A DNA stretch of 64,000 nucleotides from the NCBI GenBank assembly GCA_964202905.1, contig CAXNJO010000010.1, forward strand, positions 20,228 to 84,227. The letters are read 5' to 3'. Positions 4,401 to 7,400 of the stretch are shown here, one piece after another. This DNA comes from Polyangiales bacterium. GTDB taxonomy: Bacteria; Myxococcota_A; Polyangia; Polyangiales; JADJQN01. The notes under the pieces were generated by a model, which was not told the origin of the DNA, ran no database searches, and saw only the letters and a program-made list of their open reading frames with translations. Position 1 is the first letter of the stretch. Every line of letters begins with the position of its first letter. Both the position numbers and the translations under genes were made by a program.

Positions 4401-7400
4401 TCAGCCTTCTTCGCCGATGGCGACCGCGACGCGCTCGATACGCGCTTGCGGATAGACCATCTCGCCTTGGTCATCGACGATGACCTCGAGGCGCTTGTAT
4501 GCCCCGACACCGGTACCCGCCGGGATCAGGCGACCCATGATGACGTTCTCCTTCAGGCCGCGGAGCTCATCGAGTTTGCCGCTGATGGCCGCCTCGGTGA
4601 GCACCTTCGTCGTCTCCTGGAACGACGACGCGCTGATGAAGGACTCGGTGCTGAGCGACGCCTTGGTGATGCCGAGGAGCAGAGGCTCGGCGACAGCGGG
4701 ATTCCCGCCGCGCGCGATGACCTTCTCGTTCTCCCTCTCGAACACCTGCTTCTCCGCCTGCTCGTCGGTGAGGAAGCTGGTGTCACCCACCTCCTTGATG
4801 CGGACACGGCGCAGCATCTGGCGGACGATCGCCTCGATGTGCTTGTCGTTGATGACGACGCCCTGCAGTCGGTAGACCTGCTGGATTTCGTTCACCAACC
4901 ACGCCGCGAGCTCCTTCTCGCCCTTCACGCGGAGGATGTCGTGCGGATTCGCCGGCCCGTCCATGAGCGGCTCACCCGCGCGCACCCGATCGCCGTCCTT
5001 GACGGTGAGGTGCTTGCCCTTGGCGATGAGGTACTCCTTGGGCTCGCCGAGATCCGGGATGATCAGGACCTTCCGCTTGCCCTTGGTGTCCTTGCCGAAC
5101 TGCACGGTCCCGTCGATGTCCGCGACGATCGCGTGGTCCTTCGGCTTGCGCGCCTCGAACAACTCCGCGACGCGCGGCAGACCGCCGGTGATGTCCTTCG
5201 TCTTCGTGGTCTCACGGGGGATCTTGGCGATGACCTCGCCAGCGTCCAAGTGCGTTCCCTCGGTCGGGATGATGTTGCGAGCCCACGGGCAGGTAGTACC
5301 GCGCCATGTTCTCGCCCACGCCGCTCTTGAGCGTCTCGCCCGACTTCGGGTCCTTGATCGAGATGCGCGGACGCGCGACCGGGATCACGGGACTCGATGA
5401 CGACACGGCGAGAGAGGCCGGTCACCTCGTCGAGCTTCTCCTCCATCGTCACGCCGTCCACGATGTCACCGAACTTGATGACGCCGGAGACCTCCGTGAG
5501 GATGGGGATCGCGTAACGGGTCCCACTCGCTCATCATCGCGCCCTTCGTGACGCGCTGGCCCTCGGCGACGCGCAGCGCCGAGCCGTACGTTACGTTGTA
5601 GCGCTCGCGCTCACGGCCAGAGTCGTCGACGACCTTGATCACGCCGTGGCGGTTCATGGCGACGACGGTCCCGTCCTTCTTCTGGACGGTCTTCAGGTTC
5701 TCATAGCGGACGAGGCCCTCGTTGCGCGCCTCGATCGAGCTCTGCTCAATCTTGCCGCGCGCGGCGGCACCGCCGATGTGGAAGGTACGCATCGTGAGCT
5801 GCGTGCCAGGCTCGCCGATCGACTGCGCCGCGATGACGCCGACGGCCTCACCGATGTTGACCGTGTAGCCACGCGCGAGGTCGCGCCCGTAGCACTTGGC
5901 GCAGCAGCCGCGGCGCGCCTGGCAGGTGAGCACCGAGCGGATGATGACCTTCTCGATGCCGGCATCGTCGATGGCGCGGCAGAGCCGCTCGTCGATCTCC
6001 TGGCTGCCCTCGACGATGACCTCGCCCGTGACCGGGTCGACGACGTCCTCGAGCGCCACGCGGCCGAGCATGACGGTCGCTGAGCGGCTGCACGACTTCG
6101 CCGCCTTCCTCGAGCTTGGTGACCCAGATGCCGTCGAGCGTGCTCGCAATCGTACTCGGTGATGACCGGCGTCCTGCGCGACGTCGACGAGACGACGCGT
6201 GAGGTAGCCGGAGTTCGCCGTCTTGAGCGCGGTGTCGGCGAGCCCCTTGCGGGCGCCGTGCGTCGAGATGAAGTACTCGAGGACGGTGAGGCCCTCGCGG
6301 AAATTCGCCTTGATCGGGGTCTCGATGATCTCGCCCGAGGGCTTGGCCATCAGGCCGCGCATGCCGGCAAGCTGTCGAATCTGCTGGTTCGAGCCGCGGG
6401 CGCCCGAGTCGGCCATCATGAAGATCGGGTTGAACGAGGGCAGTGAGCGTCTTCTCGCCCGTCTCCGCGTCTACGCATCGTCTCCTTGCTGATGCCCTCG
6501 ATGAGGTCCTTCGCGACGAAGTCGGCGGTGTCCGCCCAGATGTCGACGACCTTGTTGTAGCGCTCGCCATCGGTGATCAGGCCTTCCTGATACTGCTCGA
6601 CGACGGTCTCGACGTCCTTTTGCGCGCGCGTCGAGGAGCGTCTTCTTCGTCGGCGGGATGACCATGTCATCCATGCAGACGGAGATGCCACCCCGCGTCG
6701 AGTAGGTGTAGCCGAGCGAGCGGAGCCGGTCGGCGAGCAGGACCGTGCTCTTGTTCTTGCTCTTGCGATAACAGGCGTCGATCAGGCCCGACAGCGCCTT
6801 CTTGTCGAGCACCTTGTTCACCGACGAGAAGTCGAGCTCGTCAGGAAGGATCTCCCCGACGAGGACGCGCCCCACGGTGGTGTCGACGAGCTTGCGGTCG
6901 ATGCGCACGCGGATGCGCGCGTGGAGGTCGATCTCGCTCGGAGTCGTACGCCATCCGAACCTCCTGCGGGGGAGGCGTAGATGCCGCGGAAATCGCCCTT
7001 CTTCTCGCTGCCGTCGCGGTAACAACCCCGCGCGTACGGACGCTCGCGCGTCATGTAGTAGAGCCCGAGGACGATGTCCTGGGTCGGGTTGATGATGGGC
7101 TTTCCGCTCGCGGGCGAGAGGATGTTGTTCGTGCGTCATCATGAGCACGCGCGTCTTCCATCTGAGCCTCGACCGAAAGCGGCACGTGCACGGCCATCTG
7201 GTCGCCGTCGAAGTCCGCGTTGAACGCGGCGCAGACGAGCGGGTGCAGCTGGATGGCCTTGCCCTCGATGAGGACGGGCTCGAAGGCCTGGATGCCGAGC
7301 CGGTGCAGCGTGGGCGCGCGGTTGAGCATCACCGGGTGCTCGGTGATGACCTCCTCGAGAATGTCCCAGACCTCCGGGCGCTCCTTCTCGACGAGCTTCT

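Follow-up and report, generated by a model that had tools for sequence, protein, structure and literature searches.

One-base insertions split rpoB and rpoC in a deposited Polyangiales contig and very probably reflect local consensus or assembly error

Results

rpoB and rpoC are interrupted within a canonical operon

The window, the whole 64-kb stretch of DNA analyzed here, is of high GC content (about 64–76%) and opens with a translation and transcription gene cluster on its minus strand. The relevant features are as follows.

First 19 kb of the window, minus strand: tRNAs, tuf, tRNA-Trp, secE, nusG, rplK, rplA, rplJ, rplL, rpoB and rpoC, forming a canonical operon
8599–12746, minus strand: rpoB, beta subunit, in three frame segments split by 2 one-base insertions
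4401–8595, minus strand: rpoC, RNA polymerase beta' subunit, spread over three frames and split by 13 one-base insertions; 1393 aa when repaired

The rpoC gene starts with the ATG at 8595 and ends with the TGA at 4401–4403. Among the matches listed from public genomes, the nearest rpoC genes belong to Polyangiales or Polyangiaceae MAGs, at no more than 92% identity. The gene order secE-nusG-rplKAJL-rpoBC is that of the canonical operon and is syntenic with relatives. The extra bases are present in the deposited sequence, and were they genuine mutations, rpoB-rpoC would be a recently inactivated copy, with RNA polymerase supplied by an intact second copy elsewhere. The canonical, syntenic setting of the locus speaks against such a relic, as does a tblastn search that returned no second rpoC or rpoB within the 64-kb window.

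Each break is a single extra base

A previous sequence-only reading had described 13 frame breaks in rpoC, all in the same direction and each equivalent to one extra base. These were reproduced by three-frame translation and by DNA alignment to intact homologues (L001, L002 and L005), and the alignment-based sites fall within 1–6 nt of the junctions proposed earlier. Closer DNA references were four relatives from short-read metagenomes (L083, L085, L086 and L087), which share about 90% nucleotide identity with the window and carry intact rpoB and rpoC. In each of them rpoC encodes 1393 aa, and rpoB encodes 1380–1381 aa in those that span it fully. Compared with these four, rpoC in the window has exactly 13 one-base insertions, all between 5277 and 7157, and 0 deletions. 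Over the 8.3-kb rpoB-rpoC alignment, 15 columns have a base in the window alone (13 in rpoC and 2 in rpoB), with no window-private deletions or further indels. The extra bases, bracketed within their coding-strand context, and the one similar break found outside the two genes are listed below.

7156–7157, minus strand: rpoC extra base 1, ATGG[A]AGACG
7135, minus strand: rpoC extra base 2, ATGA[C]GCACG
6966–6967, minus strand: rpoC extra base 3, CCCCCG[C]AGGAG
6936, minus strand: rpoC extra base 4, TCCGAG[C]GAGATC
6629, minus strand: rpoC extra base 5, CTCGAC[G]CGCGCG
6475, minus strand: rpoC extra base 6, ACGATG[C]GTAGAC
6441, minus strand: rpoC extra base 7, CTCACT[G]CCCTCG; junction placed at about 6435 in the sequence-only reading
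6166–6167, minus strand: rpoC extra base 8, GACGCC[G]GTCATC
6142, minus strand: rpoC extra base 9, TGCGAG[C]ACGCTC
6071–6072, minus strand: rpoC extra base 10, GACCGTC[A]TGCTC, or the preceding C
5516–5517, minus strand: rpoC extra base 11, GACCC[G]TTACGCG, or one T
5380–5383, minus strand: rpoC extra base 12, GAT[C]CCGGTC, or one G
5277, minus strand: rpoC extra base 13, GGCTCG[C]AACATC
10433–10435, minus strand: rpoB extra base 1, AACAC[C]GGCC; missing from same-species contigs L096 and L097
9140, minus strand: rpoB extra base 2, AAGGG[T]CTTC
40362–41913, plus strand: lnt, apolipoprotein N-acyltransferase, with one +1-direction frame break at about 40910–40945

The breaks are strongly clustered

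The whole window was surveyed with a codon-usage frame HMM over 64 kb, followed by a check of ORF boundaries. Beyond rpoBC, the two together found only two places where the coding frame changes without a stop codon, in lnt and in a P-type ATPase; the sensitivity of the frame HMM drops in genes that score poorly, and a few further breaks could be hidden there. In lnt, Pfam places LNT_N in the ORF that begins at position 40362, and CN_hydrolase falls in the following frame, within the ORF at 40906–41913. A frame HMM signal near 30.0 kb that suggested another break lacked Pfam support and was set aside.

The P-type cation ATPase (58552–60524) presents a separate observation. About 260 internal residues are missing, among them the DKTGT phosphorylation site and the greater part of the HAD/N domain, and translation passes into another frame at the junction (59515–59558). 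This defect is of another kind than the one-base breaks, and could reflect either a genuine deletion or sequence collapsed in the assembly. The presence of another damaged gene in the window lends some support to genuine inactivation of rpoB-rpoC.

The one-base frame breaks found in the window number 16, all in the insertion direction (two-sided P = 3e-5 if insertions and deletions are equally likely). The 15 insertions and 0 deletions in rpoBC are opposite to what genuine mutations would be expected to leave, as the decay of bacterial pseudogenes shows a deletion bias. Thirteen of the 16 breaks lie within 1.9 of the 64 kb (P about 6e-18), a concentration of about 30-fold, and clustering is also evident within rpoBC alone (P = 2.5e-7). 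The earlier description of the breaks as strikingly local to rpoC thus holds for the clustering, which is far beyond chance, but it had missed the two breaks in rpoB and the one in lnt, all in the same direction. The genes it had listed as clean, tuf, nusG and rplKAJL, are indeed intact. The 1.9-kb broken stretch is no more conserved than its flanks and no different in composition. Cross-mapping through unusual conservation of this stretch was considered and rejected, since its identity to relatives matches that of the flanks.

The sites share no recoding signal

An identical base adjoins the insertion at 5 of the 15 rpoBC sites, compared with 53% expected for random insertions in simulation. 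The sequence-only reading had placed several breaks in short G/C runs. The runs it cited, CCCCC at 6968–6972 and CCGG at 6166–6169, are both present, as is a GC-dinucleotide run near 6623–6631, although its exact extent is 6623–6630 (the coding strand over 6623–6631 reads ACGCGCGCG). However, homopolymers are not enriched at the breaks by the count above, in a test that scored homopolymers only. The C5 tract at 6968–6972 is the only run of at least 4 identical bases at any site. The inserted bases (7 C, 5 G, 2 A and 1 T) roughly follow local composition.

No common motif was detected across the 15 rpoBC sites (summed information content, P = 0.43; maximum, P = 0.24; 24 positions tested). Two of the 24 positions reached a nominal P < 0.05, and none exceeded random sites after allowing for the 24 tested. 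No stop codon lies at any shift site, because the abandoned frame stays open for 51–732 nt past each shift, and no known slippery heptamer was found at these sites.

These features bear on the proposal that genuine extra bases at 15 sites are bypassed in expression, by programmed +1 frameshifting, transcriptional slippage or RNA editing. All shifts go one way, as a single recoding mechanism would need, and selection acts on the repaired reading frame (see below). The sites themselves argue otherwise: they share no motif, have neither a stop nor a known slippery heptamer, are not homopolymers, and receive a mix of C, G, A and T. There is no slippery motif with a stop or rare codon of the kind that marks programmed +1 frameshifts, and no long homopolymer at each frameshift as transcriptional slippage would require. 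Programmed +1 frameshifting, homopolymer slippage and single-nucleotide-type editing thus each fail their defining features, and we know of no bacterial system that bypasses extra bases at many sites. Bypass of real extra bases is therefore regarded as having a negligible chance of being correct.

Repaired rpoC is a normal gene under purifying selection

Removing 13 nt from rpoC was predicted to restore 1393 codons. We confirmed this length, which equals that of the four closest database RpoC proteins (P0001–P0004, all 1393 aa). Alignment of the repaired protein to these relatives, a check proposed with the original reading, is gapless from end to end at 94–95% identity. Deletion of the extra bases therefore yields a gene of normal length that is collinear with its homologues, with no other rpoBC indel compared with L086, and the repaired frame contains no premature in-frame stops.

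Selection was compared along the repaired frame as pN/pS relative to L086. The value is 0.116 for the broken stretch, 0.069 and 0.096 for the clean parts of rpoC, and 0.068 for rpoB. Strong purifying selection thus persists across the breaks (0.116, with flanks at 0.07–0.10). Repaired RpoC differs from its four closest relatives at 70–83 residues, while these differ among themselves at 14–100, and compared with them it shows no excess of lineage-specific substitutions. Only 18 substitutions are unique to the window, of which 5 lie within two residues of a junction and are uncertain because the base deleted at junctions was chosen arbitrarily. Nucleotide identity to relatives is flat over broken and clean parts. 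Together, the pN/pS values, the few unique substitutions and the flat identity indicate that rpoC has been evolving as an intact gene essentially up to today.

An unchanged pN/pS and the lack of excess lineage-specific substitutions weigh further against genuine mutations. The rpoBC genes show none of the marks of a pseudogene, namely a pN/pS near 1, an excess of lineage-specific changes, and insertions mixed with deletions.

Same-species contigs lack the one extra base that they cover

Contigs of the same species were retrieved from short-read metagenomes by exact look-up of NusG and RplL. Two of them, L081 and L082, align to the window without gaps over 14.6–17.1 kb, at 99.9% and 99.6% identity, respectively. 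Two others reach 2.4–3.0 kb into rpoB: L096 (5.6 kb, ERZ19400053, 99.6% identity) and L097 (4.1 kb, ERZ27280278, 99.5%). Each has a single gap relative to the window, and that gap is the extra base at rpoB 10433–10435, where both contigs read AACAC-GGCC and the window reads AACACCGGCC. L096 matches the window exactly through the 3.5 kb that lead up to this gap. The extra base is therefore missing from same-species assemblies at 1 of the 15 rpoBC sites, the one site that those contigs cover.

For rpoC, protein searches with repaired sub-regions gave relatives only (at most 75% identity for residues 470–850 and at most 94% for residues 960–1393), and a contig from a DUF2141 look-up (1.4 kb) ends short of the gene. 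A pattern scan of metagenomes found 8 further JGI contigs that match the flanks of the insertions at 7157 and 7135 (at most 90% identity), all without both bases. No extra base was found in any of 12 or more relatives, whose genes are uninterrupted; conservation of the shift among related genomes, a mark of programmed frameshifts, is thus not seen. The lack of the extra bases in these 12 or more relatives, and in the same-species contigs that cover rpoB 10433, is a further argument against bypass. The rpoB 10433 base, missing from the same species in two other samples, also argues against genuine mutations, which on all of this evidence we consider highly improbable.

Several other observations were made during these searches. 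The species of the window occurs at 99.5–100% identity in several short-read metagenomes (L081, L082 and L096–L100; ERZ19569141, ERZ19400053, ERZ27280278 and others). These metagenomes comprise GROS21-1 samples and one megahit assembly, and are usable for correcting the record. L097 differs from the window at six positions in rpoB 11289–11316 (11316, 11313, 11310, 11307, 11295 and 11289), mostly 3 nt apart, a small patch of strain-level variation that is apparently synonymous. A Polyangiales MAG (L013, JAWKRM010000009.1, 10001–14161) has one-base deletions of its own in rpoC, at different sites, and its rpoB is also fragmented. Many RpoC fragments of 400–670 aa in the search match list are on long (100–500 kb) ENA metagenome contigs, an indication that frameshifts often fragment rpoC in metagenome assemblies from long reads.

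Insertions as tandem alleles

One form that an artefact could take is that each insertion represents the two alleles of one SNP written in tandem in a mixed-strain consensus. By eye every site fits this pattern, for instance ACC/ACG giving ACCG or GGT/GGC giving GGTC, and such a process would explain the insertion-only bias. At rpoB 10433 the same-species contigs have ACG, relatives have ACC or ACT, and the window has ACCG. The same-species contigs also show SNP microdiversity in rpoB, and allelic variants are a reported source of indel errors when assemblies are collapsed (PMC8445201).

When 20,000 random insertions were simulated in the repaired genes, however, a synonymous allele pair fitted 43% of them, compared with 8 of the 15 observed (P = 0.28), and adjacency to a wobble position, found at 12 of the 15 sites, is expected for 82% by chance. 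Because the simulation matches the observed values, the tandem-allele idea has no support beyond chance, and we regard it as a rather unlikely form of the artefact.

Discussion

The deposited sequence does contain the frame breaks in rpoB and rpoC, but these are very probably insertion-type artefacts of sequencing or assembly. Sixteen breaks in the insertion direction, clustered 30-fold and in genes that do not tolerate them, point to a local consensus or assembly artefact. The sequence-only reading had favored local assembly or consensus error, and the present analysis supports it: there are only insertions, repair is collinear, selection is intact, no recoding motif is present, and the rpoB base is missing in the same species. 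That view needs to be widened, because rpoB and lnt are also hit, and corrected in one respect, because homopolymer contexts are not favored. The extra base at rpoB 10433 is missing from independent assemblies, and we infer that the remaining 14 rpoBC sites and the break in lnt represent the same type of error. The source organism, a Polyangiales-like myxobacterium, almost certainly has an ordinary, intact rpoB and rpoC.

How such errors might have arisen can be outlined. The deposited consensus would carry insertion-type errors, concentrated where the assembly is locally poor across rpoB-rpoC, and 13 of these errors would fall within a 1.9-kb part of rpoC. Candidate causes are sparse coverage by long reads, a patch or contig join that was left unpolished, and mis-polishing with mixed-strain reads. 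Indels that fragment genes have been documented both for long-read assemblies and for assemblies that collapse mixed alleles (PMC12007338, PMC8445201). The one-base rpoC deletions of L013 and the RpoC fragments on long ENA contigs agree with this. The residual errors of polished Nanopore or PacBio consensus are mostly homopolymer deletions (PMC12007338). One-way insertions that avoid homopolymers are not typical of such residual error, and this counts against the artefact reading.

The main value of this result is as a quality flag, as rpoB and rpoC serve as core markers for phylogeny and completeness. Taken as deposited, the record would lose or truncate both genes and gain false pseudogene annotations, and any survey of myxobacteria for recoding or lost genes could be misled by it. 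The pattern of the errors, insertions only, not linked to homopolymers and tightly clustered, may help the depositors to trace a faulty patch or polishing step. Stray single bases from sequencing or assembly are a problem of data quality and not of biology, and no conclusion about the biology of RNA polymerase should be drawn from the deposited sequence. Were the 15 extra bases genomic, with full-length beta and beta' made by base skipping at many motif-less sites, bacteria would have a novel type of recoding or RNA editing; we give that scenario virtually no credence.

Comparison with known systems places the breaks among these alternatives. As in programmed +1 frameshifting (prfB, antizyme and Euplotes genes), one extra base would have to be skipped relative to the coding frame. 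Programmed shifts depend on a slippery site that is conserved and has a stop codon or one that is decoded slowly, and they are kept in relatives, whereas the sites in the window have no conserved slippery site and no conservation in relatives. In endosymbionts, transcriptional slippage rescues essential genes with apparent frameshifts, which are also what is seen here. That rescue needs long A/T homopolymers, whereas only 5 of the 15 sites in the window adjoin even one identical base. A bacterial pseudogene likewise carries several frameshifts in a recognizable gene, but rpoC lies in a canonical operon and, in its repaired frame, shows no relaxed selection, deletions or premature in-frame stops. 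The indel errors of long-read and collapsed assemblies (PMC12007338; PMC8445201) are spread genome-wide, unlike the breaks in the window, which are insertion-only, show no tie to homopolymers and are enriched about 30-fold within a single stretch of 1.9 kb. The likeness to these errors is that one-base indels break conserved ORFs, that repair restores collinear full-length genes, and that the indel, here at rpoB 10433 only, is missing from independent short-read assemblies.
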